Source: Polyangiaceae bacterium
GTDB lineage: Bacteria; Myxococcota_A; Polyangia; Polyangiales; Polyangiaceae
Length of the DNA stretch: 64,000 nt
Assembly (NCBI GenBank): GCA_033763455.1
Contig: JANRKO010000064.1
Coordinates: 1 to 64,000, forward strand
Direction of reading: 5' to 3'
In this document: positions 58 to 22,400 of the stretch, piece after piece
Numbering within the stretch: position 1 is the first letter of the stretch
How the letters are laid out: every line of letters starts with the position of its first letter
Program-made: the position numbers and the translations under genes
The notes under the pieces: model-generated
Told to the model about the DNA's origin: nothing
What the model saw: only the letters and a program-made list of their open reading frames with translations
The model's database searches: none

Positions 58-121
58 CGATGGCTACGCGGGATTTCTGCCGGAATCATGCGACCGCAAT
101 TGTGTATTGCCTTACGATGGC
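58..121. repeat. 7-bp direct repeat (CGATGGC at 58-64 and 115-121) bounding a 57-bp in-frame segment with two stop codons at the 3' end of the Rhs-like gene
   Basis: The minus strand reads ...AAA CTG CCA TCG TAA GGC...GCG TAG CCA TCG CAA ATC..., i.e. GCCATCG(T/C)AA repeated at a distance of 57 nt (19 codons). Confidence 0.6.
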
Positions 122-3100
122 AGTTTGGCGCGTAACATGTAGTCCACTTTTGACCAGAACTCGGGCATGCTCGTGGTGGCGTTGGTTGCACCCGAGGGAG
201 TTGCTGTCGCACGCCCTGATAGATCCGATTGAACCTCAACCAGACTGGATACCCCGTTGGCTGTCTCCGTCATGTTGCGAAGGATTTGTTTTCTGGCCGG
301 ATCGTAGTCGAAGTAGCGTTGGAGTGACGCGCCGCCCTGTTCTGTCATCGATTCAAAGCTGCCGTCGTCGCGATACGTGTAGGTTTGGTTCTGCTTAACG
401 GCGCCGCCCGGCAGCGAGCGATTCCAGCTAGAAAGGCGGTCTAGGGCATCGTACGTGAGCGCGTCGAGGGACGTTTGGGGTAACCCCGTAGGGCCGACAA
501 CCGTGCGCTGCGAGCCTCGCAGATTTCCGTTGGCGTAGTAGTCAAACTGGCGCTGATCGAGCACACGACCCAGGGGATCTTTCAAGTCAACGAAATTGAG
601 CCTTCGGCTCTTTGGATCGTACCGTCGCTGGGCAGCCAGACCGTTCCCGAACGTTTCGCGAGCCACCTGGCCGTCGACATCATACTCCAGGGCTTGATAG
701 TGGGGCGCGTAGTAAACACCCCCGCTGCCAACGAACCAGTGGCGATCATACACCGTCTGCAGGTAGCCATTCTTGTACGTATATCCTAATCCGGAGCTCA
801 ATTCGGTTTGGGTTGAAGCCTGAAGCTTGCTGTACACCCACTGATCGGAGAGGCGACCAAAACCATCGTAGGCGTACTCGGAACCGTATTCGCGCACGTC
901 ACCGGAGAGCGTCATCTTCTTCTGCTGAACCCGCCCGAACGCGTCGTACACGTAAGTTACTTTCACCTGAGGCGCGCCGTTGAGGTCTGAGGCCTGGGTG
1001 GTGCAGAGGGCGCCACTGAGACAAGTGTCGTAGGTGAAGTTTAGCAGCCTGGTTCTGTCCGTTGCGCCAGCACCAGGGCGCTCCAGTTCCGTCGCTCGAG
1101 TCACCCGGCCCACGCGGTCGTACCAGTAGTCAACGGAATCAGTGGGTGTCGAAAGGTTGCTTGTCTCGCCAAACGGAGAGTACGCGAAGGTTCGTGTTCC
1201 CGTGTTCGGGTTACTCAACAGGGTTGTGCGACCAAGGCCGTCAACGGAGATCGAAGTTAGCGTTCCCAGCGGATCTGTGAGTGTGGCTAGGACTCCGAAG
1301 GCTCCGTAGTCGTAGGTTGTGGTAACCGGCGCAGAGGGAGGACGCAGCGATACATTCTGGCGCACGCGACCTGCACTGTCGAATATCAGACGCCGCTCTT
1401 TGCCCTCTTCATCGATTTCCCGCGTCTCCATCAAGTTGGGGTATTCCCAGCGGCGGGCGGAGCCATCGGCGTTGGTTAACAGCAGCGGGCGGCCGAGCGC
1501 ATCCGCTTTGAACTTGACCTGCTCCGCCAAAGTCCCAACCTTCGCCGGGAGAGTGCGCACGGTCTCGCGGTCTTTGTCTCTGAACGTCGTGGATACCGAC
1601 ACCATCGAGCCGTCGAAGTGCTTCCATTGTTCGCCGGTAACGCGTTCGAATCCATCAAAGATTAGGGTCCGCACTTCCCCGGTGTTGGCGCTCTCCGACA
1701 CCGTGAGAGGTCCGGAAGCCGGACCCGGAAATGTTCTGATTGTCTGATAACCGTCGGGGTAAATCGTCGACGTTTGCCGCCCAAAATCGTCCAGGGTCCA
1801 CTTGGTCGTTTGGTTGTTAGGGGGCGTCGTCTCCAGCAGAACACCAAACCCAGGATCGTACTTGAGTCTGGTGACATGATTCTCAGCATTGACGATTCGG
1901 TTCGGATAAACGCCAAGTGCATCGTAGTAGACCTTGGTGGTGCGCGGAGCGAACGGCGAACCTGCAACCGGCGAACGCTCCGTCACCTCGGAAATCATCC
2001 CAAAGGCATTGCGAATGATCCCCACATCCAGTGCTTCGGCAACGGGTCCGCCTGCCTGAATATGAATAGTCTTCGGCCACGGCACCGTGCCCTCGTAATC
2101 GTAGGTCGTTTGGCGAGTGCCTACCTTAGAGCCAACGGTGCTCGTCACAGTGACGCTGCTAACACGCCCAAGGAGCCAATTCGCCGGATCCTTCGCGTAG
2201 GTCGTCGTCTCCGAGCGCACCTCCGAAATTTGGGTCGGTGAGGTTGACGCCCGCGCGACAATTCGCCCCACTGTATTACCGAAGAGGTCGTAGTAAAGGG
2301 TTTCCTGCTGCGAGAGCCCTGAACTTGGAGGGGCCCCTACCTGCTCGGTAAGCTCCTTGGACTCTACGAGCTCGGTGGTGAACGAGGCTTCCCGAAGATC
2401 CGAGCAAGTGGCCTGAGTTTCCGCGATGTTGCTCAATGCTTGTGAGTCTATGTCGCAAAAGTTCAGGGCGGGACCGCTAACGCCGGTGCCCCACGGCTCG
2501 TGGTCATAGTATTTCATTCTCCGGATTTCTTCGTCAGTGAGCCAAGTGGAAGGACGAGGAAACCCAGGCGTATAGCTAAGCGAAGAGGAGCGACGGGAAT
2601 AGTCGAGCTTACGTGCGCAGAAGCGTCGCTCGGTGCGTGTTCGGCGAGTGAGCCCCGAGGGAAGGGGAGTCTCCACGTTCGTTTCTACCGATTGACCAGC
2701 AAACGGGTAAACGTGTCCTGGACACATAGCCACAGCTAGATCATTGCGAAATCTGTCAGTAGTCACAGCCCCGCTTAGGCGATCAGTTTGATACATGCGG
2801 CCGAATCCGACAAACCCCCGACCCAGAACATCCGCCCTCGCGTCCTCGTAGCGATAGCTCAGGTCGTAGTTCGGTTCGGATGCGTTGAGTGAGGCGTACG
2901 CTCGGTGGTTCGCCACAACATCCATCCCGGTCTTCATACAACGCTGCGGGTAAAGGCAGTCGGTTCCAGGGGTGTACACAGAAGGATCGGAGATCGGCAG
3001 GTAGCTCGCGGTGTCGGTGCGGTGCCCGCCGTCAACGACCTGGGTAAGCTTGTCTGGCACTACTTTCCGCACACTGCGTAACATCTGGATCCGAGGCGTT

Positions 3101-6100
3101 TCGGTGGCGTCGCTCCAGGGATCCGCCGTCGTTGGGCGCGTCATTGGAGTACCAAAAATCCCGACTCCATGGATCTCGACCATTTGGTACGAGAACTGTT
3201 TCGGATGCACAACTTGGAAAATTTCCGGGATACCGTTGCCGTCACTGTCACCTGTAGTTGTGCCAGCGAATCCCCTACGCGTCGCTAAGATAACCCCGCC
3301 AGACACCACCTCGTTGTGCTGCAGCCGAAAGACATCGGTGCTTGGTAGGTTCACCGCTGTCCTACCCAACGACCCTCGGTTCAGAAACAATGCCGGCGGG
3401 CCACCAAACGAGGTTACCAAGCCGGTGTAGCCTCCGTATTTTGCAGCGGAATGGTAGGGGGGAATGAGAAGGTCCGCTCGGCCGTCACCATTGAAGTCAA
3501 CCAGCCGATGACTGTCTTTTGTGTCCTTGTGGATTCCCGTTACCGTGCTTGCTATTGGCCAATTGTAGGCTGGCCCAATCCCGGCGCCCGTATTAAGGTC
3601 GGCCGTTAGCAGCAGCGGTGCCTGCTCCCAAGTGCGACTAGCCGGGTCCAACAAACCATCGCCATTCAGGTCGGCGAAGCCCGCCATTTCTTTCACTGAT
3701 ATTCGCGAGGTCCGTGAGTCGAACTGTTGATGAGCCAAGGACTGTCCATGGCGTGTAAGTGAAACAAACCACCCGTACCCTTGAGATGGCATGGCGAAAA
3801 TATCCGTACGCCCGTCATTCATCAGGTCAACCCCTTGGCTTGAAACCCCGCCAACGAAGCGGGCAATGGATGGAAGCCCGCTGCTATCTCCAGGTTCGTA
3901 GTACCAATACTCGGACTGTTGGGTTTGGCTGAGCAGATTGCTAATCTCCGTCTGGCACCTAGAATCCAGCTGCTGGAAGTTGCACCCCGCTAACCGATTT
4001 TGGTGGTACTCCCACCGATCTCGATCTACGTCTGAATCAAGACGGGTGCGCATCAAGTCAGGGAGCCCGTCGGCGTTCATGTCAGCGAACGTGAAGGGCT
4101 GATGGAGTTTACCAGGAGTGCTTGGGATATCGGCAACCCTGGTCAGCCCGGAGCCATTCCAGGAGAATACGCTGAAACGATCATAACGCCCCGCATGATT
4201 CACAATGTATTCGGTGCCGTCGAACAAGGCCAACACTAACTCGTCGGCGCCATCGCCATTCAAGTCCACAGTGCGTGATCGATGAACGTTCAGACCATAC
4301 TCGCCAAAGATCGGGCTGGGGACTACGTTGCTAACATCTACGGGGGGAGCGTAGGGTGCGGGGTTCCCAGCGGGATTTGCGATCTGGACAAACAAGTGCC
4401 ACTTCTCATTCGGCGGAGGCTCCGAACCCGCATACACGAGATCCGTGCGCCCATCTCCGTTCAGATCCGTCGTGATAAGCCTTGTAAATTCAAACCATAG
4501 GGGGAAAAGAGGCATCGCGCCAAGATCCACGACTTCAAACTCGCCAACTGCGTCGTCATAGGTGAATCGAGTCGGTTCCAGACATTGGTTGTCAGAAAGG
4601 TCTGAGTCGTCAGAGTACTTCCTGCCCGTGCAGAACGCCGCAGCTTCGAGTAAGGAACGGCCGGTTGACTCGCTCTGCTTGTACAGGAGGCGATAAGACC
4701 ACAGCTTCGTCTGAGCGGGCGACTGGTCAGTCGCGTATCCCAGAGCAGAGACCTCGCGCAGTCGGTAGTCGATAGACACATTAACGCCGCCTTCGAACAT
4801 CGGAAGGCGATCCGGTTTCAGATCGTAACTGAAAGACATCGAGCCTGTTGGGTAGTTGATGCTAGAAGGAAGCCTGCTCGCCGATCCGACGCCTCCATCT
4901 CCGACTCCTCCCAAAACGTATTTGAAGTCGATCCAATTTCCTGCGCGATCTTCGATGCGGCTCACGTGCCAGCTCCTGACCACCCTTGCACCCTGGTTGA
5001 CGGAATCGGTATCGCGCAGCTTGAGGCCATTACCCTCAGCGAACGCAGCAGGGGACACGGGGCTGTCGGAGTCGTTGTCGCCCCCGAGCACTGCAGTCCC
5101 CGTTGAGTCATCGGTTCCCCCAAGCGTCAGGATGCGGCCGTCCTTTGTTTCAATACGAAAACGTCGCGGTGAGCCATCACTTCGAACACCGCCCTCCGCA
5201 CGGACCCTCGAGTAATCAGCCTGCTGCGTACGGTACTCAAGAAGATCCACCTCGTTGAGCTTTTGTCCATTCAGGCAGTAGCTGTCCGTAGAATCGTAAC
5301 GCACCCTCTCGGAAATTCCGTCGGAAGCCACAGACTTTCGGCAGCGGCTGATGCTCGGAAGCCCGTCCAAAGACCACCCCACCCCAGCGAGGCCATCCCC
5401 GCCTCTGCTGTTGTAAACCAACCGGAGATCCGGTTGCAGGTCGAGACGCCCCTTCGGAGCTCGCAGCGGGATCTCATACTGAAATGCCCCATCTTTGGAC
5501 ACAAGAGCCCGCCCGTCCAACTTGCCGGGCAATGGGATTGCGAAATTGACGTTAACCGGCGTTAGATTTGGGGGTGGGAGTGGCGGACACCCCGTGGGAG
5601 CGATGCAGGTCAGCGACCGCATGAATCCGGGCCATTGAGCGTCGGGAACGCACGCTTGCTTTCCGGACTCCACAAGCGTTCCTCCAAAATTGCAGGTTGG
5701 ATTCGACGTTCGGCAGGCTTGATCACCTAGCGGCATAGACGTGACTTCAGTGCAACCGGCGGCCCCGCAGGTACTGCAGGGCTTGATCCCTTGCGGGCAG
5801 GTCATCGGAGTGCACGTGTATTCCCGAAATAAGTTGGGATTCCCTGCCACCGCCACGCAGGACTTGGTTCCAGGGCTCACCTTTGTCCCGTCAAAGTCAC
5901 ACTTCCATGAGGGTTGAGTGCACGATAAGGGGTCGGCTGCCTTCGTTAATTTGGTTGTGCATTGGGGCTGGCCACATGTACATGTTGTGGTCGGCGGGCA
6001 ACTTGGCGTTTGTGCGGGGGCGGGCGCGCAAGTGGATTGAGTTGGCAACTCCCCGAACGAAACGGTGCGGCACGACGACGCCCCCGGGGCAAGCAAACCC

Positions 6101-6378
6101 CCTCCCGGAATAGCGCAGCGCCAGGACTTGCTCACGCAGTCGTACGTTGGTGCCAGGGATTCTTTTCGTGCACAGATATTTCCCGCACACGAGCAACTCA
6201 CACCGCTAGGTGGTGGTTGACAGAGAGGATCCCCGCCTACCGTACAACCAGCCAGGGCAAAGCTTGTGGTTCGGTCCTGCGACTTCGCCGAGCCGCCTTC
6301 CCGTTCCTTGGAATCGCACCCTCCCGCAAACAGAACAAGGACACCCACCCAGAATAGAATTCTTCTTGCTGCTAACAT
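112..6378 (-). CDS. Large YD/Rhs-repeat protein (SpvB-like N-terminal domain, FG-GAP/VCBS repeats, TcdB-midN-like region, YD repeats) with a putative lipoprotein signal and Cys-rich N-terminus; Rhs core and C-terminal toxin not in the ORF
   Basis: SpvB-like segment GAFQYEIPL..PKGR..LQPDLRLVYNS.GGDGLAGVGWSL; repeated DLNGDGxxD motifs; YRYEDARADVLGRGFVGFG; many YDxxGR repeats. Start moved to the ATG at 6378 (MLAARRILFWVGVLVLFAGG-C); the ORF track starts at 6519. Confidence 0.85.
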   Translation of the reverse strand: MLAARRILFWVGVLVLFAGGCDSKEREGGSAKSQDRTTSFALAGCTVGGDPLCQPPPSGVSCSCAGNICARKESLAPTYDCVSKSWRCAIPGGGLLAPGASSCRTVSFGELPTQSTCAPAPAQTPSCPPTTTCTCGQPQCTTKLTKAADPLSCTQPSWKCDFDGTKVSPGTKSCVAVAGNPNLFREYTCTPMTCPQGIKPCSTCGAAGCTEVTSMPLGDQACRTSNPTCNFGGTLVESGKQACVPDAQWPGFMRSLTCIAPTGCPPLPPPNLTPVNVNFAIPLPGKLDGRALVSKDGAFQYEIPLRAPKGRLDLQPDLRLVYNSRGGDGLAGVGWSLDGLPSISRCRKSVASDGISERVRYDSTDSYCLNGQKLNEVDLLEYRTQQADYSRVRAEGGVRSDGSPRRFRIETKDGRILTLGGTDDSTGTAVLGGDNDSDSPVSPAAFAEGNGLKLRDTDSVNQGARVVRSWHVSRIEDRAGNWIDFKYVLGGVGDGGVGSASRLPSSINYPTGSMSFSYDLKPDRLPMFEGGVNVSIDYRLREVSALGYATDQSPAQTKLWSYRLLYKQSESTGRSLLEAAAFCTGRKYSDDSDLSDNQCLEPTRFTYDDAVGEFEVVDLGAMPLFPLWFEFTRLITTDLNGDGRTDLVYAGSEPPPNEKWHLFVQIANPAGNPAPYAPPVDVSNVVPSPIFGEYGLNVHRSRTVDLNGDGADELVLALFDGTEYIVNHAGRYDRFSVFSWNGSGLTRVADIPSTPGKLHQPFTFADMNADGLPDLMRTRLDSDVDRDRWEYHQNRLAGCNFQQLDSRCQTEISNLLSQTQQSEYWYYEPGDSSGLPSIARFVGGVSSQGVDLMNDGRTDIFAMPSQGYGWFVSLTRHGQSLAHQQFDSRTSRISVKEMAGFADLNGDGLLDPASRTWEQAPLLLTADLNTGAGIGPAYNWPIASTVTGIHKDTKDSHRLVDFNGDGRADLLIPPYHSAAKYGGYTGLVTSFGGPPALFLNRGSLGRTAVNLPSTDVFRLQHNEVVSGGVILATRRGFAGTTTGDSDGNGIPEIFQVVHPKQFSYQMVEIHGVGIFGTPMTRPTTADPWSDATETPRIQMLRSVRKVVPDKLTQVVDGGHRTDTASYLPISDPSVYTPGTDCLYPQRCMKTGMDVVANHRAYASLNASEPNYDLSYRYEDARADVLGRGFVGFGRMYQTDRLSGAVTTDRFRNDLAVAMCPGHVYPFAGQSVETNVETPLPSGLTRRTRTERRFCARKLDYSRRSSSLSYTPGFPRPSTWLTDEEIRRMKYYDHEPWGTGVSGPALNFCDIDSQALSNIAETQATCSDLREASFTTELVESKELTEQVGAPPSSGLSQQETLYYDLFGNTVGRIVARASTSPTQISEVRSETTTYAKDPANWLLGRVSSVTVTSTVGSKVGTRQTTYDYEGTVPWPKTIHIQAGGPVAEALDVGIIRNAFGMISEVTERSPVAGSPFAPRTTKVYYDALGVYPNRIVNAENHVTRLKYDPGFGVLLETTPPNNQTTKWTLDDFGRQTSTIYPDGYQTIRTFPGPASGPLTVSESANTGEVRTLIFDGFERVTGEQWKHFDGSMVSVSTTFRDKDRETVRTLPAKVGTLAEQVKFKADALGRPLLLTNADGSARRWEYPNLMETREIDEEGKERRLIFDSAGRVRQNVSLRPPSAPVTTTYDYGAFGVLATLTDPLGTLTSISVDGLGRTTLLSNPNTGTRTFAYSPFGETSNLSTPTDSVDYWYDRVGRVTRATELERPGAGATDRTRLLNFTYDTCLSGALCTTQASDLNGAPQVKVTYVYDAFGRVQQKKMTLSGDVREYGSEYAYDGFGRLSDQWVYSKLQASTQTELSSGLGYTYKNGYLQTVYDRHWFVGSGGVYYAPHYQALEYDVDGQVARETFGNGLAAQRRYDPKSRRLNFVDLKDPLGRVLDQRQFDYYANGNLRGSQRTVVGPTGLPQTSLDALTYDALDRLSSWNRSLPGGAVKQNQTYTYRDDGSFESMTEQGGASLQRYFDYDPARKQILRNMTETANGVSSLVEVQSDLSGRATATPSGATNATTSMPEFWSKVDYMLRAKLPS

Positions 6379-6442
6379 ACGTACAAGCTCCCGCCCAAAG
6401 GCCTCACCCACTTGTTGAATATCAGATGCACAACGCGTCAAT

Positions 6443-6460
6443 GGTGACATTACGATGACT
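6443..6460 (-). promoter_or_regulatory. Putative Pho box upstream of the Rhs-like gene
   Basis: Minus strand aGTCATcgtaatGTCACc: two GTCAY half-sites 11 bp apart, about 65 bp before the ATG at 6378. Confidence 0.55.
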
Positions 6461-6812
6461 TTCGGAGGTGAGGGAAAACCAGGGAAAACCCCAGTGCCGC
6501 GATTCCACCTTTTCGCCAAACGCCTGCGAACGCCCAGGTTGGCTGAGCGAAATGGCGCCCATTGCTAGAAACGGCATATGGATGAGCCAAGCTCGATCTG
6601 ATACTGGCGCCCGCCACTGAAGGTGCCTTGTGCCGCGCCACCCGGACACGGGAAGGCCCTTGCGCACAACCTCCCTCCAGCCCATTCCACAACAACCAGC
6701 CGCTCTCCTTGCGACTGTCACGCCCGCTAGGCGCCACCCTTAATCAGGTTCGTGTTCATCGGCTCGCGTTTTCGCCCCCGCGTCCCACAGTCGGTGCCCA
6801 TGCTGGGCGCGC

Positions 6813-6843
6813 AAAAAAGGCCGGCAACTCTCGTCGCCGGCCC
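6813..6843 (-). terminator. Rho-independent terminator after the lipoprotein gene
   Basis: Minus strand GGCCGGCGAC-GAGA-GTTGCCGGCC followed by TTTTTT, about 25 bp past the stop at 6868. Confidence 0.85.
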
Positions 6844-6867
6844 TTCTTACTGGGGAGCCTTACTTCC

Positions 6868-8352
6868 TCAGTTCTTGGACCAATCTACCCATTTTCCGGT
6901 CATCCAGTTGCCGTTGGTGAATGCGCCACGGGTAGTAAAGCTGGTGACGGTCGAGGCTGGAGCTCCATCCTGAATGCACTCAGCTGCTGTGAAACCTGCG
7001 CTTGTCGTGTTATTGCCTGCTCCGGCGCCAAAGAATACTGTTTCGTCAAAACCAAAGTCGTTGTCTCCTTCGCCCGCGTTTGCGATGTCACCAAGGCGCA
7101 TACCAAACAGGCTCGCGTTGACTATGGTCACGTACGGAGCGTTCGTCGTGCCCGCGTCGTCCCTCATGTCAAAACCATAGTCGAAACCACTTGCCACCCA
7201 GCTATCAATACTCGCGGCAGTCCCTCGGCGAAACACTCCGCCGTACGTTACCTTGCCAACCTGTTCAACGCCGAAGCCGCAAAGCGTAACGTTTGAGACA
7301 ACCGGGCGTGTCCTTGGCAAGTTGGCTTGACCATCCTTGAAATTGTCCCACTCGAACCCGGTTGGGTCACCCGAAGCATTCGCAAACTTACGTCCAAACA
7401 GGTAGCTAAGCGTACCCACGTAGCCGCGGTCTATGTCGAACGCATCATCCCCATCACCGTTGCAGATCAAGTGGCTAGCATTCACGGCGCCACCGAACCA
7501 CTCGAAGCAGTCATCGAGCCCATTGCTCACTTCGATATGGTCAATAGTCGTCCCGCTACCAACAGAGCCGAAGGTCAACCCGTTCAGCTCCACGTCCTTG
7601 GCCAGTTGGTAGCCCGCAAACTCGATTCGCACGTACTTCATGGTGCCGCTGTTGTCAGTATTATCTGCCCCACCGTGCTTGTTGAGTGGGTCGTCCGCCA
7701 GGCCCTCGACAAGTACGTTTGTGCTGTTGCCATTGCTCACCTGATTGTTAATTCCATGGCCCAACAGCACCACGCCACCCCAGTCGCCCGCAGCTCGGGC
7801 ACCAGGGGCCGCAGTCGATGTGAAGAGAATTGGCTCTTCGGCAGTACCCACAGCCTGGATCTTGGAACTTCGGGCGATGATGAGTGCGCCCAGGGGCTCC
7901 TTGGTGCCTTCGATACGCGTGCACTTCTCAATAGTAAGGGTTGCGTTGTTGTGGACGCGGATCTTGTCCTTCAGCACCCACACTTTGTCTGCAGTGAAAG
8001 TGGTGTCCGCGGCTATGTCGGCTATAACGTCCACCCGCGTCTTGCCTACACCGGAGAGGTCGCACGCCACTGCTGGGGCTCCGCCCGTGCCCGTGCCGCC
8101 CGTCTGCTCCGCTCCGCCCGTACCGACACCAGCCGTTCCCCCCGCTTGAGTCGCTCCACCTGCGGCTGATGCCGCTCCACCTGCGGCTGATGCCGCTCCA
8201 CCTGAACTTGCAGCCTTACCGCCGGCAGCGGAGGCGCCACCAGTTGTCGGGTTATTGAGGGATGGTGTCTTCGCGTCATCGCTGCAGGCAATCGCTAGGA
8301 GCGGCAGGGCGGCGACGCTGGCGCCAAGGACCAACAATCTTGAAAAACGCAT
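6868..8352 (-). CDS. TBDR-associated surface lipoprotein, probable right-handed beta-helix (pectin-lyase-like) fold, Gly/Ala-rich linker
   Basis: ATG at 8352 with AGGAGA RBS; lipobox LAIA-C; motifs GDWGGVVLLG, DNSGTMKYVRIEFAG, ELNGLTFGSVGSGT, DDCFEWFGG, DDDAFDID. The fold assignment is inference. Confidence 0.7.
   Translation of the reverse strand: MRFSRLLVLGASVAALPLLAIACSDDAKTPSLNNPTTGGASAAGGKAASSGGAASAAGGAASAAGGATQAGGTAGVGTGGAEQTGGTGTGGAPAVACDLSGVGKTRVDVIADIAADTTFTADKVWVLKDKIRVHNNATLTIEKCTRIEGTKEPLGALIIARSSKIQAVGTAEEPILFTSTAAPGARAAGDWGGVVLLGHGINNQVSNGNSTNVLVEGLADDPLNKHGGADNTDNSGTMKYVRIEFAGYQLAKDVELNGLTFGSVGSGTTIDHIEVSNGLDDCFEWFGGAVNASHLICNGDGDDAFDIDRGYVGTLSYLFGRKFANASGDPTGFEWDNFKDGQANLPRTRPVVSNVTLCGFGVEQVGKVTYGGVFRRGTAASIDSWVASGFDYGFDMRDDAGTTNAPYVTIVNASLFGMRLGDIANAGEGDNDFGFDETVFFGAGAGNNTTSAGFTAAECIQDGAPASTVTSFTTRGAFTNGNWMTGKWVDWSKN
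8152..8204. repeat. 21-bp coding tandem repeat (~2.5 copies, GGAASAA linker)
   Basis: GCCGCTCCACCTGCGGCTGAT unit repeated head to tail. Confidence 0.8.
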
Positions 8353-8405
8353 TGATGAAGTTCTCCTGTTATTCAATGTCTGAAACACCCTTTTGCCGCC
8401 ACTCA

Positions 8406-13319: not shown

Positions 13320-13360
13320 AACGCTTCTCCTCGGTCTTTCGCTTAATTAGAAGGGCTCTC

Positions 13361-14107: not shown

Positions 14108-14133
14108 TCAGGGGCGGAGCTTGCTCAGAGTGT

Positions 14134-14171
14134 GTGACATGCGCGTGACGCCACGGGAAATTGACCGTGAA
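14134..14171 (-). promoter_or_regulatory. Putative Pho box upstream of the tonB operon
   Basis: Minus strand TTCAC-ggtcaa-TTTCC-cgtggc-GTCAC-gcgcat-GTCAC at 11-bp pitch, 26 bp before the tonB start. Confidence 0.65.
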
Positions 14172-14299
14172 GCAAGCTGGCCGCATTTTTCGCAAGGATC
14201 TTAAAGTTGTGACACACAAACGCCTCATGATCGTCATGAAACCGGGGCGCGCGTGGCGACCCGCCCCCAGAAAGCACTCACCCCACAGGTGCTACGGTG

Positions 14300-14318
14300 C
14301 TGTCACCTTGAGGTCACA
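14300..14318 (+). promoter_or_regulatory. Putative Pho box upstream of phoB (first copy)
   Basis: CTGTCACcttgagGTCACa, with GTCAC at 14302 and 14313. Confidence 0.7.
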
Positions 14319-14347
14319 CTTCAGCAGTATGCCGTCATTCGTAAGTG

Positions 14348-15043
14348 ATGACCCAGATCCTGGTCGTGGAGGACGAACGCGATATCGCGGATGTCCTAGA
14401 CTACAATTTGACTAATGCCGGCTACGAAGTCTTGGCGGCAGCATGCGGTCAAGATGGGCTCAAATTAGCTCGTGCAAGAAAGCCTGATTTGGTGCTGCTC
14501 GATCTGATGTTGCCTGATATTTCAGGGACGGAAGTTTGTCGCGCACTCAAGGACGATCCGAACACGCGCGGTTTACCTGTTATCATGGTCTCGGCGCGCG
14601 GGGAGGAGATAGACCGCGTAGTTGGCTTCGAGCTCGGCGTGGAAGATTACGTCACCAAGCCGTTTAGTATGCGCGAGCTGCTGTTGCGCATTAAGGCCGT
14701 CCTCCGCCGGCAGAGCCCAAAGGGGGAAGTCTCTGGTCAGTTTCTGGAGTTCGGGGAGTTACGCATCGATCTGGGCGCCCATCGAGTTTGGGTCCGGGAG
14801 GTTGAGGTGGAGCTCACCGCGATTGAGTTCAAGCTTCTCACCACCCTCCACGATCGCCAAAACCGCGTTCAGTCGAGGGCGGCCCTGCTCGACCACGTTT
14901 GGGGGATGGATACCAAGGTCACCACCCGGACGGTGGACGCACACGTCAAGCGCCTCCGCCAGAAGCTGGGGGCTGCCCGTGACTATGTGGAGACGGTTCG
15001 GGGGGTGGGGTATCGATTCGCCGAAGCCCCCCTGGCTTCCTGA
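14348..15043 (+). CDS. phoB: OmpR/PhoB family response regulator heading the pst operon
   Basis: VEDE, LLDLMLP, KPF receiver motifs; RTVDAHVKRLRQKL and ETVRGVGY winged helix; adjacent to pstS. Confidence 0.9.
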   Translation: MTQILVVEDERDIADVLDYNLTNAGYEVLAAACGQDGLKLARARKPDLVLLDLMLPDISGTEVCRALKDDPNTRGLPVIMVSARGEEIDRVVGFELGVEDYVTKPFSMRELLLRIKAVLRRQSPKGEVSGQFLEFGELRIDLGAHRVWVREVEVELTAIEFKLLTTLHDRQNRVQSRAALLDHVWGMDTKVTTRTVDAHVKRLRQKLGAARDYVETVRGVGYRFAEAPLAS

Positions 15044-15101
15044 CAGCCATGGCCGTGCATAAAATCTGCGCATTTTTCCCGAACTTTGCGGGATTAGCCC
15101 G

Positions 15102-15131
15102 TTGTCACAGAAACGTCACACAGGTGTTGCA
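15102..15131 (+). promoter_or_regulatory. Putative Pho box upstream of pstS
   Basis: ttGTCACAgaaacGTCACAcaggtGTTGCA, half-sites at 15104, 15115 and 15126. Confidence 0.8.
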
Positions 15132-15175
15132 GCCTGGCCTTCCTGGCTCGGCCGGGGGTTGGTAGGAGCACCCGC

Positions 15176-16270
15176 ATGATTCGACGAACCCTTCTGGCGA
15201 CATTGGCTACGGCCCTATTGGCGGTTGTTGGCTGCTCTAAATCTGAGGCTCCGGGCGGTACCGGTCCCGGGGCACCCCCTCCGGCCCCAGCCGGCCCAGT
15301 CAAGCTCACGGGGGCCGGGGCTACCTTCCCCTATCCCCTCTACTCGAAGTGGATGGATGAGTACCGGAAGCTTAAGCCGGGCGTTCAAATCAACTATCAG
15401 TCGATCGGTTCGGGCGGTGGCATCCGCCAAGTGATCGCCGGCACCGTCGACTTCGGCGCCACCGACGCGCCTATGAATGATGAGGAGGCGAAGAAAGCTC
15501 CTCACAAGTTGTTCCACCTACCGATGACGCTCGGAGCCGTAGCGGTCGTGTACAACGTGGCAGAGCTCAAAGCACCTCTCAAGCTGACACCCGATGTTCT
15601 CGTCGACATCTACCTCGGCAAGATCACCAAGTGGAACGACGCTCGCCTCAAGGCTTTGAATGAAGGCGCCGCGCTTCCTGCCGCAGACATTCGTGTCGTT
15701 TCACGCAGCGACGGCAGCGGAACCACGGCAGTATTCACTGATTATTTGGGCACCGTAAGCCCTGAATGGAAAGAGAAAGTTGGCGTCGGCAAGAGCGTGA
15801 AGTGGCCTGTTGGCCTTTCTGCCAAAGGCAATGAGGGCGTTTCCGGCAGCGTTAGCACCACGCCCGGTTCTATTGGCTACGCCGAGCTTGCGTACGCGCT
15901 CCAGACTGGGCTTTCGATGGCAGCGCTGAAGAGCGTCGTTGGCGAATTTGTTACCCCAAGCATCGAAGCCGTCACCGCTGCTGCTGAAGGCGTCGAACTT
16001 CCCGATTCACTGCACGTTTCGATCGTGAATTCTGCCGCACCTAAGGCCTATCCGATCAGCTCGTACACGTACCTTCTGGTCTACGAAGATATGCCGGACG
16101 CCGCCAAGGCGCAGGCACTCAGCGAATTTTTGTGGTGGGCCATCCACGACGGCCAAAAACTGTCAGGAACGCTGCACTACGCTCCGCTCCCCGCAAAGGC
16201 CATCGGCAAGATCGAGGCTCGGCTGAAAGAGCTCAAATCAGGAGGAAAATCTCTACTTGGGAGCCCTTGA
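15176..16270 (+). CDS. pstS: Phosphate ABC transporter substrate-binding lipoprotein
   Basis: GAGATFPYPLY, YQSIGSGGG, RSDGSGTT, GNEGV motifs; lipobox VVG-C; AGGAG RBS. Confidence 0.97.
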   Translation: MIRRTLLATLATALLAVVGCSKSEAPGGTGPGAPPPAPAGPVKLTGAGATFPYPLYSKWMDEYRKLKPGVQINYQSIGSGGGIRQVIAGTVDFGATDAPMNDEEAKKAPHKLFHLPMTLGAVAVVYNVAELKAPLKLTPDVLVDIYLGKITKWNDARLKALNEGAALPAADIRVVSRSDGSGTTAVFTDYLGTVSPEWKEKVGVGKSVKWPVGLSAKGNEGVSGSVSTTPGSIGYAELAYALQTGLSMAALKSVVGEFVTPSIEAVTAAAEGVELPDSLHVSIVNSAAPKAYPISSYTYLLVYEDMPDAAKAQALSEFLWWAIHDGQKLSGTLHYAPLPAKAIGKIEARLKELKSGGKSLLGSP

Positions 16271-16296
16271 CGGGCGACTGAGCTAGACAGCGGCCC

Positions 16297-17280
16297 ATGG
16301 CCACGCACCACGAAAGTCTCGTCCGTCCCCGTCCTAAGTGGCTCAAGCCATTTGGGAGTGAGGTGAATTGGGGCGATGCGATCTTTCGCACGCTGACACT
16401 GCTATTTGCTCTGGTCGTGGTGGCCGCCCTCGCAGGCATGGCTGTGCAGATGTTGAAGGCCTCCAAGCTGAGCCTGGCGACGTTTGGCCTTGGCTTCATC
16501 ACATCCACGTCGTGGGATCCTGTACAAGATCAGTTCGGTGCGCTCCCGTTCATTTTTGGGACGGTTGTCTCTTCGCTGTTGGCGCTGGTGCTGGCCGTCC
16601 CAGTCTCTTTGGGGATCGCCGTCTTCCTGACCGAGATGTGCCCGGCCTGGCTCAAGAACCCGGTGGCCTTCTTGATTGAGCTGCTTGCTGCCGTGCCGAG
16701 CGTTGTGTACGGGCTCTGGGGCATTTTTGCATTGGCTCCTTTCATGCGCGAGGTGGTGGAACCCGCACTCGAAGCAACTCTGGGCTTTTTGCCCTTTTTC
16801 CAAGGGCCGGCACAAGGGTTTGGAATGCTGACCGGAGCGGTGATTTTGGCCATTATGATCACCCCTACCGTCTCTTCCGTGAGCCGCGAGGTATTGAATG
16901 CAGTGCCCAGCACCTTACGGGAGGGTTCCTACGCCCTCGGGGCTACGCGCTGGGAAACGCTGCGCACCGTCATTCTGCCCTTCGCGCGTTCGGGGTTGGT
17001 GGGCGCCACTATCTTGGGGCTCGGGCGTGCCCTCGGGGAAACCATGGCTATCACCATGGTGATCGGCAACCGTCCGCAGATGAGCGCGTCGCTTTTTGCG
17101 CCGTCGTATACGATGGCAAGCGTGATCGCGAACGAGTTCACGGAGGCAACGGGCGACCTCTACCTTTCAGCCCTCGCCGAAATTGGATTCTTGCTGTTTG
17201 CCGTCACGCTTATCTTAAATATTGTTGCCCGCGCCTTGGTCTGGCGGGTAGCACGCCTGCCTGCGGGGGGTAGGTTATGA
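16297..17280 (+). CDS. pstC: Phosphate ABC transporter permease
   Basis: ELLAAVPSVVYGLWG, ALGATRWE and GRALGETMA motifs. Confidence 0.97.
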   Translation: MATHHESLVRPRPKWLKPFGSEVNWGDAIFRTLTLLFALVVVAALAGMAVQMLKASKLSLATFGLGFITSTSWDPVQDQFGALPFIFGTVVSSLLALVLAVPVSLGIAVFLTEMCPAWLKNPVAFLIELLAAVPSVVYGLWGIFALAPFMREVVEPALEATLGFLPFFQGPAQGFGMLTGAVILAIMITPTVSSVSREVLNAVPSTLREGSYALGATRWETLRTVILPFARSGLVGATILGLGRALGETMAITMVIGNRPQMSASLFAPSYTMASVIANEFTEATGDLYLSALAEIGFLLFAVTLILNIVARALVWRVARLPAGGRL

Positions 17281-18134
17281 GCCGCATTACCGGCGAACAC
17301 CACGCTCTCAGGAAGTTTACGAATGCAGCCTTCAGCGCCGCATGCGTGGTTGCCACAGTGATCGCTGTAGTTCCGCTATTTGGCATTCTCTATTACGTGG
17401 CAGCACGGGGCATGCAAGGCATCAACTGGGATTTCTTCACCCAATTGCCCAAGCCCGTGGGGGAAACCGGCGGCGGCATGGCCAACGGCATCTTGGGCAC
17501 GCTCAAGCTCGTGGGGTTGGCCTCGGTGATGGGCATTCCCCCAGGGGTACTCGCCGGAGTGTACCTAGCGGAGTTTGGTCAAACCCGTATGGGCTCGGTG
17601 GTGCGGTTTTCGGCGGACGTATTGTCGGGCATTCCCTCCATCACGGTAGGTATCTTCATTTATTCGCTGGTGGTGCTCACCACGAAAACCTTCTCCACCA
17701 TTGCCGGAGCTCTTGCGCTTGCCGTGATCATGTTGCCGACGGTCACCCGCACGACCGAGGAACTCCTACGCCTGGTGCCAGAGTCCCTGCGAGAAGCGGC
17801 CCTCGGGCTCGGCGTCCCCAAGTGGCGCGCCACACTGCGAGTCATGCTCCGCACTGCTGCTCCTGGAATTGCCGTGGGCATCATGTTGGCCGTGGCTCGC
17901 GTGGCCGGAGAAACAGCTCCGCTGCTCTTCACGGCCTTCAGCAATCGGTTCTGGTCGGATAGCCTGCTCGAACCTACCGCCTCGTTGCCAGTGCAAATCT
18001 ACACCTATGCCGTTTCGCCCTTCGAAGATTGGCACCGCCAGGCCTGGGCTGCGGCACTCGTTCTCGTTAGCCTGGTGTTGATTCTCAACATCTCGGCGCG
18101 TCTCCTCGTTCGAAACCGTGTGAGAAAGCAATGA
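17277..18134 (+). CDS. pstA: Phosphate ABC transporter permease
   Basis: [14 protein letters not shown] and [13 protein letters not shown] motifs; ATGA overlap with pstC. Confidence 0.97.
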
Positions 18135-19024
18135 GCTTTTCCCTAGAATCCGAATCCTCATCCGCCATGCTTGCGGCGCGCACCGTACCCGAGGGCAAAT
18201 CGAGCCCGAGTGCTTCGGATGCCGAGGCTTCCAATCCGCTCGCTGCCGAGTTCCAATTGAACACCAAGGCGAATTCCAAGATGCAGGCCGAAGACCTGCA
18301 TGCGTATTTCGGCAACACCCATGTGCTGAAGGGCATCACGCTGCCGATCCTAGAAAAGAAGGTCACAGCCATTATCGGCCCTTCAGGTTGCGGAAAATCC
18401 ACCTTTATCCGCTGCTTGAACCGCATGCACGAAGTCGTTCCCAACGCGAAGGCCAAGGGCAAGGTTACACTTGAAGGTTTAGATATTTACGGCCGCGACG
18501 TGGATCCGGTCCGCGTGCGGCGCCGAGTCGGCATGGTCTTCCAAAAGCCCAACCCCTTTCCCACGATGTCGATTCGCGACAACGTCTTGGCGGGCCTGCG
18601 GCTCAATGGCATCCGAGTGAGCGACCCAGATACCCGCGTGGAGCGCGCACTTTGCCAGGTTGCCCTGTGGGATGAAGTGAAAGACCGCCTAGATCGCGCG
18701 GGCACCAGCCTCTCGGGCGGCCAGCAGCAGCGGCTCTGTATCGCAAGGTCCTTGGCCATGGAGCCCGAGGTGATCCTCATGGATGAGCCGTGTTCTGCGC
18801 TGGATCCTATCGCTACAGCACGAGTGGAAGAGCTCATTCACGAGCTCCGCGAGGACTACACCATCGTAATTGTGACCCACAACATGCAGCAGGCCGCCCG
18901 CGTCGCCAACTACACCGCCTTTTTCTATCTCGGAGAAGTTGTCGAGTTCGACAAGACGGATGCTATATTTACCCACCCTAAGCAACGCCGGACGGAAGAC
19001 TACATCACCGGCCGTTTTGGATGA
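18131..19024 (+). CDS. pstB: Phosphate ABC transporter ATP-binding protein
   Basis: [53 protein letters not shown]. Confidence 0.98.
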
Positions 19025-19037
19025 AAGCCGAGGCTCT

Positions 19038-19730
19038 TTGGACCGTAAGCATACCGACCGCGAATACGACCGAGAGCTGGACACCCTACGCGAGCAGGTG
19101 TTGCTCATGGGCGCGCGTGTTGAAGAAATGATCAATAACGCGCTTGCCGCGTTCGAAACAAGAAACATCGATCTCGCACGTCAAACCATCGCGATGGATC
19201 GGCAAATTGATCTCCTAGAGATTGATATCGATCAGATGTGCATCAAAGTCTTGGCTCGGCGTCAACCAGTGGCCTCGGATCTTCGATTTGTGATGATGAC
19301 GTTCAAACACGTTACAGATCTCGAACGCATTGGAGATCTCGGCGTGAACATTTGTGAGCGCGTTCTAGACCTCGGAGATCGGGTAGTGCTTCGGGAGGCG
19401 GCCGGCTCCGTGGTGCGTATGGGCCATGTTGCGCAGCAGATGCTCCATGATGCCCTTGATGCGTTTGTGGCGGCTGACCCCCATAAAGCGCAAGAAGTGA
19501 TACGGCGCGATCAGCAGGTGGATACCTATTACGCGCAGCTATTTCCCGAGCTAGTTACCGCGATGATGCAAGACCCAAGCTTGGTGGTGAGGGCAACCCA
19601 GTTGCAGTCGATCAGCAAGAACATTGAGCGCATCGCCGATCATGCAACAAACCTCGCCGAGATGGTGGTGTACATGGTGAAGGGGCAAGATGTGCGCCAC
19701 CACGTTGCAGATGCCAACCGCGAAAACTGA
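19038..19730 (+). CDS. phoU: Phosphate signalling protein PhoU
   Basis: QPVASDLR, DLERIGD and IERIADHATN motifs. TTG start at 19038 after GAGG; the TTG at 19017 is an alternative. Confidence 0.95.
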   Translation: MDRKHTDREYDRELDTLREQVLLMGARVEEMINNALAAFETRNIDLARQTIAMDRQIDLLEIDIDQMCIKVLARRQPVASDLRFVMMTFKHVTDLERIGDLGVNICERVLDLGDRVVLREAAGSVVRMGHVAQQMLHDALDAFVAADPHKAQEVIRRDQQVDTYYAQLFPELVTAMMQDPSLVVRATQLQSISKNIERIADHATNLAEMVVYMVKGQDVRHHVADANREN

Positions 19731-19764
19731 TAGCTGAAAGCCCAAAGGTGGCGTGGTTGCAACG

Positions 19765-21657
19765 TCAGCCCGACACATCGGCTTCGGCATCCACTGGCGC
19801 AACCGCTACGGCGATTCTGGTGGAGCTGCCAGTGCGCTCTTCAGGCGCATTTCGTAAGGCCACCGTAAAAGTGGTGCCGACTCCCTCGGTGGACTGGACC
19901 GAAACCGTACCCTTCATCGCCTCCGTCATGTGTTTCACTATGGCGAGGCCCAAGCCCGTTCCCCCGAGTTCGCGAGACCTGCCAGCGTCTACCCGGTAGA
20001 AACGCTCAAATAGGCGCGGCAGGTGCTTACTCGCAATGCCCGGGCCGGAATTCTCAACCATAAGCTTGGTAAAGCCTTCTGATACCTCCACGTGAGTTCG
20101 AATCGTGCCACCAAGGCTCGAATATTTGACAGCGTTGTCGATTAGGTTGGTGAGTACGTGTTCAAGCGCGCGCCTATCACCGGTGACCCAATACTTGTTG
20201 GGCTCCACATCCTGATGAATCGTTAAATTCCTCTTTTCAGCGCGCTCCAGGAAGAGCGCGACGGCATGCTCCACCGCCATGGCCAGATCAATCGATTCGA
20301 GGTTGAGCTTAAGCTCGCGCGACTCGATCCGTGAAAGCTCCAACAGATCTTCAACGAGTTGGCCCAGCCGTTCCGCGTTGCGTGCGATGATGGGCAAGAA
20401 ACGCTTGCGGGCTTTGGCATCTTGGTCGGGCGCTCCTTCCAGCGTTTCAGTCGCGGAAAGAATCGCGGCCACTGGTGTTCGTAGCTCGTGCGAAACGTTC
20501 GCCACGAAATCGCGCCGCAAAGATTCCAAGCGGCGCATCTCCGTGACGTCGACAAAAACGGCGAAAACACCCCCTTCTTCGGTGCGCAGCCGCGCGGCCC
20601 GTGCCAGCAAAACTCTCGGCTTTAGCCCACCCACCTCAAGCACGGTGGAGACGGCTTCCGTCGCTGTTCCAGCTCGATCTAGAAGCTCCTTGAGCTCCGT
20701 GTGGCGGAGCACCTCCAACACCATTTTTCCTATCGCATCTTGCCCGAGGAGCAGCATTTCTCGGAGCGCAGGGTTGGTGAGAGTAACATATCCGTTCACG
20801 TCCAGCACCAGCACGCCCTCTTGCATCCCCCGCAAGATGGCACCCAACCGATCACGCTCTTCGCTCAGCTGCTCCACCGTACTCGAGAGCCCCTGCGCGA
20901 GCTGATCGAGTGCAAGGCTCAATTGGGCAAATTCATCGGTGCCCGACATGCGAATGCGGACGTCCAGATCCCCGCGTGCCATTCGCCCGGCCGCTTCAAC
21001 GAGCGTGCGAATCCCGCGAGACGCAAGCTGAGCAGCCAAGGAAGACAACAGCACCGCCAGCATCAACGCCAACGCAGTCGCAAAGCCCAGCGCGCGTCGC
21101 AGATCAGAGATCGCGGCCTCCACCTCACGCAGGGGCGTCGACACTCTGACCACACCTGTAAACGGAGTTGCCTGCCCGTTGCCCTTCTGAGCAACCGAAG
21201 GAAAATTCCCCCGAGCGTCAGAGCCTACTCGCACGGCCACGTACGCCATCGGTTCCCTGACCGTGGCAGAGAGTCGCTCGGCGTGGCCCTGCCCTGTCTG
21301 CATTGCGTCTAGAACTTCGGGGCGCTGTGCGTGATTCTCCACCTGGGAGAGCGCGCTCCGTGCCACGTCTGAGTCCCCCACCACCACGCCATCGCGCCGA
21401 ATCAAGGTGACGCGCACCGAGCCCATTTTTCCGATGCTATCTGCCAGCGCGTCCCACGAATTCAGGTCGTCAGGTGCGAGCCTTACCGAACGAACTTGGT
21501 CCGCCACGATCTCGGCATGGGTTACTAAGCTTTTCTGAATGCGCGCCGACACCCCACTTTCCAGCTGGGTGCGCATAAAAATGTAAGCTACCCCGATGCA
21601 CGCCGCGATCAAACTCAGAAAAACGGTAAAGAGTTTGCCGCGGATGCCAAGCTTCAA
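19765..21657 (-). CDS. phoR: PhoR-type sensor histidine kinase (HAMP, PAS, HisKA, HATPase)
   Basis: DFVANVSHELRTP, NLIDNAVKY, FERFYRVDAGRSRELGGTGLGLAIVKH; two TM helices; start overlaps the phoB stop. Confidence 0.92.
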   Translation of the reverse strand: MKLGIRGKLFTVFLSLIAACIGVAYIFMRTQLESGVSARIQKSLVTHAEIVADQVRSVRLAPDDLNSWDALADSIGKMGSVRVTLIRRDGVVVGDSDVARSALSQVENHAQRPEVLDAMQTGQGHAERLSATVREPMAYVAVRVGSDARGNFPSVAQKGNGQATPFTGVVRVSTPLREVEAAISDLRRALGFATALALMLAVLLSSLAAQLASRGIRTLVEAAGRMARGDLDVRIRMSGTDEFAQLSLALDQLAQGLSSTVEQLSEERDRLGAILRGMQEGVLVLDVNGYVTLTNPALREMLLLGQDAIGKMVLEVLRHTELKELLDRAGTATEAVSTVLEVGGLKPRVLLARAARLRTEEGGVFAVFVDVTEMRRLESLRRDFVANVSHELRTPVAAILSATETLEGAPDQDAKARKRFLPIIARNAERLGQLVEDLLELSRIESRELKLNLESIDLAMAVEHAVALFLERAEKRNLTIHQDVEPNKYWVTGDRRALEHVLTNLIDNAVKYSSLGGTIRTHVEVSEGFTKLMVENSGPGIASKHLPRLFERFYRVDAGRSRELGGTGLGLAIVKHMTEAMKGTVSVQSTEGVGTTFTVALRNAPEERTGSSTRIAVAVAPVDAEADVSG

Positions 21658-22358
21658 GGCACGGCCTCTTCAGGCGAAGCAACAAAGCGGTATCCAACGC
21701 CACGCACGGTCTCAACGTAGATCCGAGCGGCTTCTAGCTTCTCGCGCAGCCGCTTGACGTGGGTATCCACCGTGCGAGTGGTGATGTCAGCCTGGATGCC
21801 CCACACGTCGTCGAGCAGTGTGGTCCGTGTTTGGACGCGGTTTTTCCGGTCAAATAACGTCAGCAGGAGCTTAAATTCTAACGCTGTAAGCTCCACCTCA
21901 AGGGATTCCACCCACACCCGGTGCGCTTCTCGATCGATCTTCAAGCAACCGAACTGCACCTCGTCTTTATCTCGCTCAGCTTGTGGCCCGGTTGATCGGC
22001 GCAATACCGCGCTCACGCGGAGCAGAAGCTCACGCACACTGAACGGTTTTACGACGTAATCATCGGCACCTAGTTCAAAGCCCACCACACGATCAATCTC
22101 CTCGCCGCGCGCCGTAAGCATCATGATCGGGATCCCGCGAGTTCGCTGGTTCTCCTTCAAGATCTTGCACACCTCAGTACCGGAGATATCCGGCAGCATC
22201 AAATCTAGAAGCACAAGATTAGGCTCGGCTTTCTGAACTAGGCTGAGCGCTTCATTGCCCGTTCCAGCTGTTCGCACCTCGTAGCCAGATTGGCTCAAGT
22301 TGTATTCGAGAACCTCGCGCAGGTCCGGCTCGTCTTCGACTACAAGAATGCTCACCAT
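21654..22358 (-). CDS. phoB: OmpR/PhoB family response regulator (second copy, paired with phoR)
   Basis: Same motifs as the 14348 copy, with long identical blocks (LDLMLPDISGTEVC, ARGEEIDRVVGFELG). Confidence 0.9.
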   Translation of the reverse strand: MVSILVVEDEPDLREVLEYNLSQSGYEVRTAGTGNEALSLVQKAEPNLVLLDLMLPDISGTEVCKILKENQRTRGIPIMMLTARGEEIDRVVGFELGADDYVVKPFSVRELLLRVSAVLRRSTGPQAERDKDEVQFGCLKIDREAHRVWVESLEVELTALEFKLLLTLFDRKNRVQTRTTLLDDVWGIQADITTRTVDTHVKRLREKLEAARIYVETVRGVGYRFVASPEEAVP

Positions 22359-22382
22359 TTCTTTGATCAGGTAGCCTTAACC

Positions 22383-22400
22383 TGTGACAGCGAAGTGACA
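22383..22400 (-). promoter_or_regulatory. Putative Pho box upstream of phoB-phoR
   Basis: Minus strand TGTCACttcgcTGTCACa, 11-bp pitch, about 25 bp before the ATG at 22358. Confidence 0.78.

Follow-up and report, generated by a model that had tools for sequence, protein, structure and literature searches.

We analysed a window of 64,000 nt from a Polyangiaceae bacterium (the whole stretch formed by positions 1 to 64,000 of the forward strand of contig JANRKO010000064.1, assembly GCA_033763455.1). We read positions 6868-22400 as a chromosomal phosphate-starvation (Pho) regulon cluster of a Polyangia-like myxobacterium, in which pstSCAB-phoU, phoR and two phoB genes lie next to an operon for a TonB-dependent transporter (TBDT) and a beta-helix lipoprotein. 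The cluster stands beside a lineage-specific, truncated and toxin-less Rhs shell gene for which an attack role is unsupported. We place the probability of this reading at about 0.65. At the level of sequence, it is carried by the gene content, by the placement and conservation of a repeat that we take for the Pho box, by the conservation of the TBDT-lipoprotein pair and by the truncation of the Rhs open reading frame (ORF). The features of the cluster are as follows (window coordinates, strand, description and basis).

6868-8352, minus strand: beta-helix lipoprotein P0002, 494 aa, predicted to be at the cell surface (PF28492, lipobox, AlphaFold2 (AF2) model)
8406-8432, minus strand: possible split Pho site GTCAC-N6-AGCAC-N6-GTCAT, 53 nt before the lipoprotein ATG (motif scan)
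8507-11683, minus strand: TBDT with CarboxypepD_reg domain, plug and barrel (PF13620/PF13715, PF07715, PF00593, PF14905)
11735-12172, minus strand: second exbD (Pfam ExbD)
12218-12781, minus strand: exbD ORF, with the domain from residue 53 (Pfam ExbD)
12612-13319, minus strand: exbB (Pfam MotA_ExbB)
13361-14107, minus strand: tonB (Pfam TonB_C; TIGR01352)
14134-14149, minus strand: predicted Pho box of the tonB operon, 26 nt before the ATG (motif scan)
14302-14317, plus strand: predicted Pho box of phoB1, 27-30 nt before the start (motif scan)
14345-15043, plus strand: phoB1, OmpR-family response regulator with PhoB as best match (TIGR02154)
15104-15119, plus strand: predicted Pho box of pstS, 56 nt before the ATG (motif scan)
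15176-19730, plus strand: pstS-pstC-pstA-pstB-phoU (PstS by TIGR00975, the others by Pfam)
19765-21657, minus strand: phoR (Pfam, NCBIfam)
21654-22358, minus strand: phoB2 (Pfam, NCBIfam)
22384-22399, minus strand: predicted Pho box of phoB2, 25 nt before the ATG (motif scan)

A conserved Pho box before pstS, phoB and tonB

The direct repeat GTCAY-N6-GTCAY has six exact matches on the two strands of the window. In 100 shuffles that preserve dinucleotides the expectation is 0.30, and a count of six was reached in 0/100. Five of the six are intergenic and each is oriented to its downstream gene, namely pstS, phoB1, phoB2, tonB and the Rhs-like gene, as an earlier note on this DNA had claimed. 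If one mismatch is permitted, 11 matches are found where 9.4 are expected, which is background level. The sixth exact match (32015-32030, minus strand) lies within the ORF of a Ser/Thr protein kinase (30841-32598), where it probably arose by chance or is inert.

To follow the repeat beyond the window we used 79 related loci from species-representative genomes, found by means of the lipoprotein, taken with 10-kb flanks and searched with the window proteins by tblastn. Box conservation was counted in ten Myxococcota loci, where an exact or one-mismatch copy had to lie within about 120 nt of the start in the correct orientation (the background per 280 nt is 0.009 exact and 0.034 one-mismatch copies). 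A box precedes pstS in 2/2, phoB in 4/4 and tonB in 4/5 of the Myxococcota loci. The pstS box is exact in L002 and L010, at 56-73 nt from the start; the tonB box is exact in L002 and L019, at 26-31 nt, and has one mismatch in L027 and L005, at up to 57 nt. For phoB the distance is 21-32 nt in three loci and 116 nt in L003. Because the box is kept before pstS, phoB and tonB at kept distances, GTCAY-N6-GTCAY behaves as the Pho box of this clade, to which PhoB would be expected to bind, and the tonB-TBDT-lipoprotein operon is a member of the predicted Pho regulon. The tie that the note had drawn through the box from this operon to pst and phoB is thus borne out in Myxococcota.

As in the Pho regulon of Escherichia coli, direct repeats at an 11-bp pitch stand upstream of pstS and of an apparently autoregulated phoB. 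Unlike in E. coli, the half-site is GTCAY, there are two phoB paralogues, and the starts of phoB and tonB follow their boxes at 25-30 nt.

The lipoprotein gene had also been credited with a copy of the repeat. There is no exact GTCAY-N6-GTCAY upstream of it, the sixth exact match being the intragenic one at 32015, and only the split form GTCAC-N17-GTCAT is found there (8406-8432). This is the sole GTCAY-N17-GTCAY match in the window (0.34 expected; at least one in 28/100 shuffles), and a comparable split site occurs in 1/10 Myxococcota loci (L024). An internal Pho promoter ahead of the lipoprotein gene at this predicted split site is possible.

Two further observations concern the placement of boxes. 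The boxes end 25-30 nt before the starts of tonB, phoB1 and phoB2, and 21-46 nt before those of tonB and phoB in L002, L019 and L027; the spacing of 25-30 nt suggests leaderless or very short-leader transcripts. In two Gemmatimonadaceae loci (L034, 9880-9895; L042, 9777-9792), an exact GTCAY-N6-GTCAY lies in the spacer between the gene of the TonB-dependent receptor (TBDR) and the lipoprotein gene, on the strand opposite to the genes.

Pst and the two PhoB paralogues

PstS is clearly assigned (TIGR00975, 378.3 bits, cut-off 205), and for PhoB1, PhoB2 and PhoR the model of the same name ranks at or near the top. PhoB1 and PhoB2 are 65% identical, and their C-terminal DNA-binding segments are nearly alike when the alignment is read by eye. 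Each paralogue has its own box, and a phoR partner is found only beside phoB2. The locus in L002 has a single phoB, which is 75% identical to PhoB2 and 68% to PhoB1.

The TBDT and its lipoprotein partner

The TBDT matches TIGR01782 with 193.5 bits, below the cut-off of 310. P0002 carries a lipobox (LLAIAC, read in the translation), and PF28492 (Beta_helix_4) was assigned to it and, among the matches listed, to all of at least 120 homologues. In its AF2 model P0002 is a right-handed beta-helix (predicted local distance difference test (pLDDT), 83.9). A fold search of PDB with P0002 returned weak pectate-lyase-like matches (best E = 1.5e-3), with no match at E <= 0.001 and no functional lead, and a literature search on PF28492 found nothing. 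The alignment of the lipoprotein (A1) comprised P0002 and 39 homologues.

A TBDR gene lies directly upstream of the lipoprotein gene in 63 of the 79 related loci, which include Myxococcota, Bacteroidota, Gemmatimonadota and others; 9 of the 16 exceptions have less than 3 kb of upstream sequence. The order phoB, tonB-exbB-exbD-exbD-TBDR-lipoprotein was found again by tblastn in L002, L003, L019 and L027, and L005 has the identical tonB-exbB-exbD-exbD-TBDR-lipoprotein order without a phoB match. The pst genes adjoin the module in L002, L010, L042 and L068. A PhoB-like regulator is encoded within the flanks of 21/79 loci. Of 18 regulator stretches in 16 loci, chosen by hand and mostly among these 21, 18/18 have a PhoB model as best match, and six pass the cut-off of NF053854 (Bacteroidota PhoB).

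Eight loci (L025, L029, L043, L050, L058, L068, L070 and L075) have a tandem pair of lipoprotein genes, which follows one TBDR in L029, L043, L058, L068 and L070, the loci with upstream sequence. This arrangement implies paralogous lids that would serve one transporter.

Published systems resemble this module closely. In Flavobacterium johnsoniae, the TBDT Fjoh_0545 and the lipoprotein Fjoh_0546 are reported to lie in a phoBR operon and to be strongly induced upon depletion of inorganic phosphate (Pi) (Lidbury et al., ISME J, PMC8115612). As described in that report, the F. johnsoniae system ('PUSIV') shares with the window a TBDT with PF07715, PF13715 and PF14905, a pectin-lyase-fold outer-membrane lipoprotein directly after the TBDT, and a position beside phoB/phoR (PMC8115612). 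Induction by Pi depletion is shown there for Fjoh_0545/Fjoh_0546 and would be predicted here from the boxes; unlike the Flavobacterium pair, the operon in the window is headed by its own tonB-exbB-exbD-exbD, has pstSCAB-phoU adjacent and belongs to another phylum (PMC8115612).

The same source states that lipoproteins of the Fjoh_0546 type are related to ElpS of Caulobacter crescentus (PMC8115612). ElpS (CC0170) is described as a surface lipoprotein produced under phosphate starvation, with its gene beside that of the TBDR CC0171 (cc0171) as in the window, and the two genes are reported to co-occur across genomes (Le Blastier et al., PLoS One, PMC2996285). According to this report, ElpS boosts extracellular phosphatase activity and is itself no phosphatase (PMC2996285). 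Unlike the pair described here, the Caulobacter pair adjoins type II secretion genes, and its TBDR is reported to be constitutive (PMC2996285). No type II secretion system genes were found in the 64-kb window. The Caulobacter PhoB regulon is reported to include TonB-dependent receptors (PMC11208175).

In Bacteroides thetaiotaomicron, BT4055/BT4056 are likewise a non-SusC TBDT and a lipoprotein, and BT4056 is stated to be homologous to ElpS and Fjoh_0546 (Price and Arkin, bioRxiv 10.1101/2023.03.17.533168). The preprint proposes BT4056 as the lid of BT4055 and gives the pair as conserved in 621 genera; a lid role for P0002 would follow by analogy with that proposal (bioRxiv 10.1101/2023.03.17.533168).

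Because of its fold, Pfam family, lipoprotein signal, adjacency to a TBDT and phoBR context, we infer that P0002 is a TBDT partner ('lid') of the ElpS/Fjoh_0546/BT4056 type. By analogy, the importer would be of the known ElpS, Fjoh_0545-0546 and BT4055-4056 kind. The earlier note had known of no described system with this layout; a TBDT and beta-helix lipoprotein under phosphate-starvation control, in or beside phoBR, had in fact been published in the reports cited above (PMC8115612, PMC2996285, bioRxiv 10.1101/2023.03.17.533168).

A truncated Rhs-like shell gene beside the cluster

On the other side of the lipoprotein gene lie three further features.

112-6378, minus strand: Rhs-like, TcB/TcC-type shell protein P0001, 2088 aa (Pfam, translation)
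6444-6459, minus strand: exact Pho-box-like match GTCAT-N6-GTCAC before the Rhs-like gene (motif scan)
about 6811-6850, minus strand: intrinsic-terminator-like hairpin with U-run, 3' of the lipoprotein gene (fold energy)

P0001 consists, in this order, of a lipoprotein-type signal (lipobox-like LFAGGC), a Cys-rich region, SpvB, FG-GAP, TcdB_midN and RHS/YD repeats. The AF2 model of residues 1101-2088 has a pLDDT of 80.1, with the final 29 residues disordered, and its best PDB matches in Foldseek are the TcdB2-TccC3 cocoons (E = 4e-29, TMq 0.63-0.69). The relatives of P0001, which have about 2100-2300 aa, are polymorphic toxins of the fused SpvB/FG-GAP/RHS type; such toxins are frequent in Myxococcota and Actinobacteria, and many of the relatives have a secretion or lipoprotein-like signal. 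Identity to these homologues is at most 27-31% (27% for the best match).

The C-terminal end of these toxins is missing from P0001. The Rhs core (TIGR03696) has no match in P0001 even at E <= 1 and is present in 5/6 homologues tested. The autoproteolysis motif PxxxxDPxG is absent from P0001 and present in 31/40 homologues (the first 40 of those listed), and no C-terminal toxin (cargo) domain was found in P0001. Of the 37 P0001 homologues aligned (A2), 24 carry the core motif. Counted from the position that corresponds to P0001 residue 2025, these 24 run on for a median of 237 residues (range 221-247) until the motif ends and then for a median of 296.5 more; P0001 itself stops 63 residues after residue 2025, the last aligned shell segment. 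Nothing RHS-like was seen in the other frames of the last 330 nt or past the stop, and the ORF is intact over its 2088 codons. P0001 is therefore, as far as its sequence tells, a C-terminally truncated TcB/TcC-type shell lipoprotein without core or toxin. Of the note's picture of an Rhs shell enclosing C-terminal cargo, the shell (SpvB, FG-GAP, TcdB_midN, RHS) stands and the core and cargo fall away.

In domain order and shell fold P0001 is like the fused SpvB/FG-GAP/RHS toxins (P0127, P0193) and Photorhabdus TcdB2-TccC3. Unlike toxins of the P0127/P0193 type, it lacks the Rhs core, the autoproteolysis motif and the toxin (P0193 ends in a WHH/Colicin-DNase toxin domain), it has no TcA partner, and it carries an extra Cys-rich N-terminus of about 270 residues. 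This Cys-rich region (P0001 residues 22-290; window 5509-6315, minus strand) lies ahead of SpvB and appears to comprise three or so alike Cys-spaced segments. The homologues leave it uncovered, with alignment beginning near residue 240, and an Atlas search with the Cys-rich N-terminal region gave no usable match. The public gene call (P0122, 1874 aa) begins at P0001 residue 215 and so lacks the signal peptide, the lipobox and most of the Cys-rich region (window 5737-6378).

The neighbourhood of the gene is not shared with relatives. An Rhs homologue within 10 kb of the lipoprotein gene was found in 0/79 related loci, contrary to the conserved Rhs-TBDR-pst synteny that had been envisaged. Instead, L002 has, after its lipoprotein gene, the OmpA-like gene that in the window stands at 22474, from which we infer that the locus is rearranged and the Rhs junction lineage-specific. 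The OmpA-like gene travels with a gene for a 229-aa hypothetical protein: the two flank phoB2 in the window (22474-24125) and directly follow the lipoprotein gene in L002 (11766-14712).

In natural Tc systems, the shell is divided between TcB and TcC. P0001 might accordingly supply the TcB-like half of a BC toxin that is split over two genes, with a small TcC-like gene (the rest of the shell, the core and the toxin) and an immunity gene just past the left window edge. The match of the P0001 model to TcdB2-TccC3 fusions agrees with such a split, as does an ORF that stops cleanly inside the shell and not in evident out-of-frame sequence. Against this, the 111 nt past the stop show no evident start codon with a ribosome-binding site, all 24 motif-bearing homologues of the 37 aligned are single fused chains, and the only similarly short close homologue (P0123) has an end that appears frameshifted. 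We consider a split toxin unlikely. Its stronger form would have PhoB control a lipid-anchored BC-type Rhs shell that receives core and toxin from a separate gene outside the window, so that starvation arms a surface toxin beside the ElpS-type importer; we regard this as a long shot.

The terminator and the box of the Rhs-like gene

The strong terminator that the note had seen between the Rhs-like gene and the upstream operon was recovered. The 71 nt at 6800-6870 (minus strand) fold with -36.3 kcal/mol (z = -4.45), and 0/200 shuffles were as stable; the hairpin itself (about 6811-6850) is G+C-rich and followed by a U-run. A simple terminator scan missed it. With this terminator upstream, the Rhs-like gene needs its own promoter. 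The hairpin has an A-run before it as well as the U-run after it and could terminate transcription in both directions.

The exact match at 6444-6459 stands 65 nt before the ATG at 6378 in the correct orientation, a distance similar to that of the pstS box (56 nt). About 0.001 exact matches would be expected on one strand of the 490-bp intergenic spacer (0.30 per 128,000 strand-bases). The site is much like the box before tonB in L002, both reading AGTCAT-N6-GTCACC. About 11 nt upstream of it (6471-6490, minus strand) the 10-nt unit GGTTTTCCCT occurs twice as a perfect tandem copy, a duplication that could be the site of another regulator or a product of slippage.

Weighing the readings

Several observations weigh against the reading that we favour. 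PhoB1 and PhoB2 score 261.8 and 258.3 bits, both below the NCBIfam curated cut-off of 296.2, and PhoR scores 291.2 bits, below its cut-off of 334.2. The membership of P0002 in the ElpS, Fjoh_0546 and BT4056 group is set by fold, family, signal and context and not by alignment with those sequences. The closest of the related loci is 45% identical at the lipoprotein, so the absence of Rhs homologues says little on close kin (nearer relatives of the lipoprotein, P0003-P0009, are 56-60% identical and metagenome-derived). The window ends 111 nt past the Rhs stop, and a separate gene for core and toxin may lie beyond the edge. The remaining points concern the Rhs site. In a weight matrix of 13 sites it scores 11.2 bits (rank 7/127,954), against 21.4-25.0 bits for the four training sites from the window, and the intragenic sites 32015 and 14979 score above it. 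In a matrix of nine sites from the relatives only, it scores 7.8 bits, and 19 window positions score as high against 13.6 +/- 4.3 in simulation. A consensus promoter scan found no sigma-70-like promoter in 6200-8600. Several phoB promoters show, when read by eye, a hexamer starting with TA at about 11 nt past the box, and the Rhs box has no such hexamer behind it.

The Rhs site thus stands above background by the core pattern (six matches, 0.30 expected) and not above it in the flank-inclusive matrices. The match at 32015-32030 scores above it in both matrices. Both matrices are dominated by noisy spacer and flank columns, and the nine-site matrix left the true phoB1 site outside its top 15; they are weak, non-decisive evidence against the site. 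Taking the sequence evidence on the two sides, we give PhoB control of the Rhs-like gene roughly even odds.

If PhoB does not act there, 6444-6459 would be a chance, relic or inert site, and the Rhs-like gene a decaying remnant unrelated to phosphate, placed there by rearrangement. Exact matches at chance level do exist, as the intragenic one shows, the relatives' matrix puts the Rhs site at background, and both the truncation of the gene and the lineage-specific junction revealed by the OmpA-like gene of L002 point the same way. Most PhoB sites in E. coli are also reported to be transcriptionally inert, though these are intragenic (PMC10294691). The very low expectation for the spacer, the orientation and pstS-like distance of the site and its likeness to the L002 tonB box argue for a real site, and an ORF that is intact over 2088 codons with normal G+C content at third codon positions (GC3) argues against decay. 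We judge this alternative a serious possibility, if short of probable.

The 'attack and scavenge' island of the earlier note goes furthest, with low phosphate co-inducing a functional surface Rhs/Tc-like toxin (or an encapsulated phosphorus-releasing enzyme), the TBDT and Pst, so that neighbours are killed and their phosphorus scavenged. It draws on the exact core of the box, rightly oriented 65 nt before the gene and behind a terminator that makes a separate promoter necessary, on a modelled fold of the TcB-TcC shell type, and on relatives that end in nuclease-type toxins such as the WHH/Colicin-DNase of P0193. It conflicts with the lack in P0001 of the Rhs core, PxxxxDPxG and a C-terminal domain (the homologues are longer by about 237 + about 296 residues), with the absence of Rhs beside the lipoprotein gene in the related loci and with the background score of the box in the flank-inclusive matrices. 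No TcA, type VI secretion system (VgrG/PAAR) or immunity gene was found in the 64-kb window, which spans 111 nt on the downstream side of the Rhs-like gene, and no link between PhoB or the Pho regulon and an Rhs/Tc gene turned up in the literature that our search covered. We consider such an island quite improbable: an Rhs-like gene that attacks neighbours or releases phosphate is unsupported, the gene having no toxin end and no conservation at the locus.

Genomic setting

The window is chromosome and not a compositional island. G+C is flat across it (57-62%), and the other 40 kb encode housekeeping functions (FtsH, TilS, MnmA, a sigma factor, the CCA-adding enzyme, kinases and a UvrA-like protein). 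The best protein matches of the window are to Polyangiaceae/Myxococcota. A compositional island was considered and rejected, as the Rhs-like gene is like its neighbours in G+C and in GC3 (0.64 against 0.62-0.71). A search of the whole window with Rfam gave no family above threshold.

Proposed mechanism

Under the favoured reading of a Pho-regulon cluster, and following the E. coli and Caulobacter paradigm, low phosphate would lead PhoR to phosphorylate PhoB, of which there are two paralogues. Phosphorylated PhoB would bind the direct GTCAY repeats at their 11-bp pitch, overlapping the -35 region, and would turn on pstSCAB-phoU, both phoB genes and a dedicated outer-membrane import unit. This unit would consist of tonB-exbB-exbD-exbD, the TBDT and the surface beta-helix lipoprotein as partner or lid, and its cargo would be some phosphorus-containing compound. 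Induction at low Pi, exposure of the lipoprotein at the surface and import of phosphorus compounds are each expected from the published homologous systems.

Implications

If PhoB does control the Rhs-like gene, Pho regulons would gain a modest new member. A PhoB-armed split Rhs toxin, if true, would tie nutrient scavenging to antagonism or predation at the level of regulation, a link of which no example turned up in the literature searched. The cluster itself extends to Myxococcota a widespread and functionally unsolved module, the TBDT with an ElpS-type lipoprotein under phosphate-starvation control, here equipped with a dedicated TonB-ExbBD set and with Pho boxes that are clear and conserved. 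As the clade's Pho box, GTCAY-N6-GTCAY may be used for regulon prediction, and the locus offers a further system in which to seek the phosphorus substrate of the transporter.

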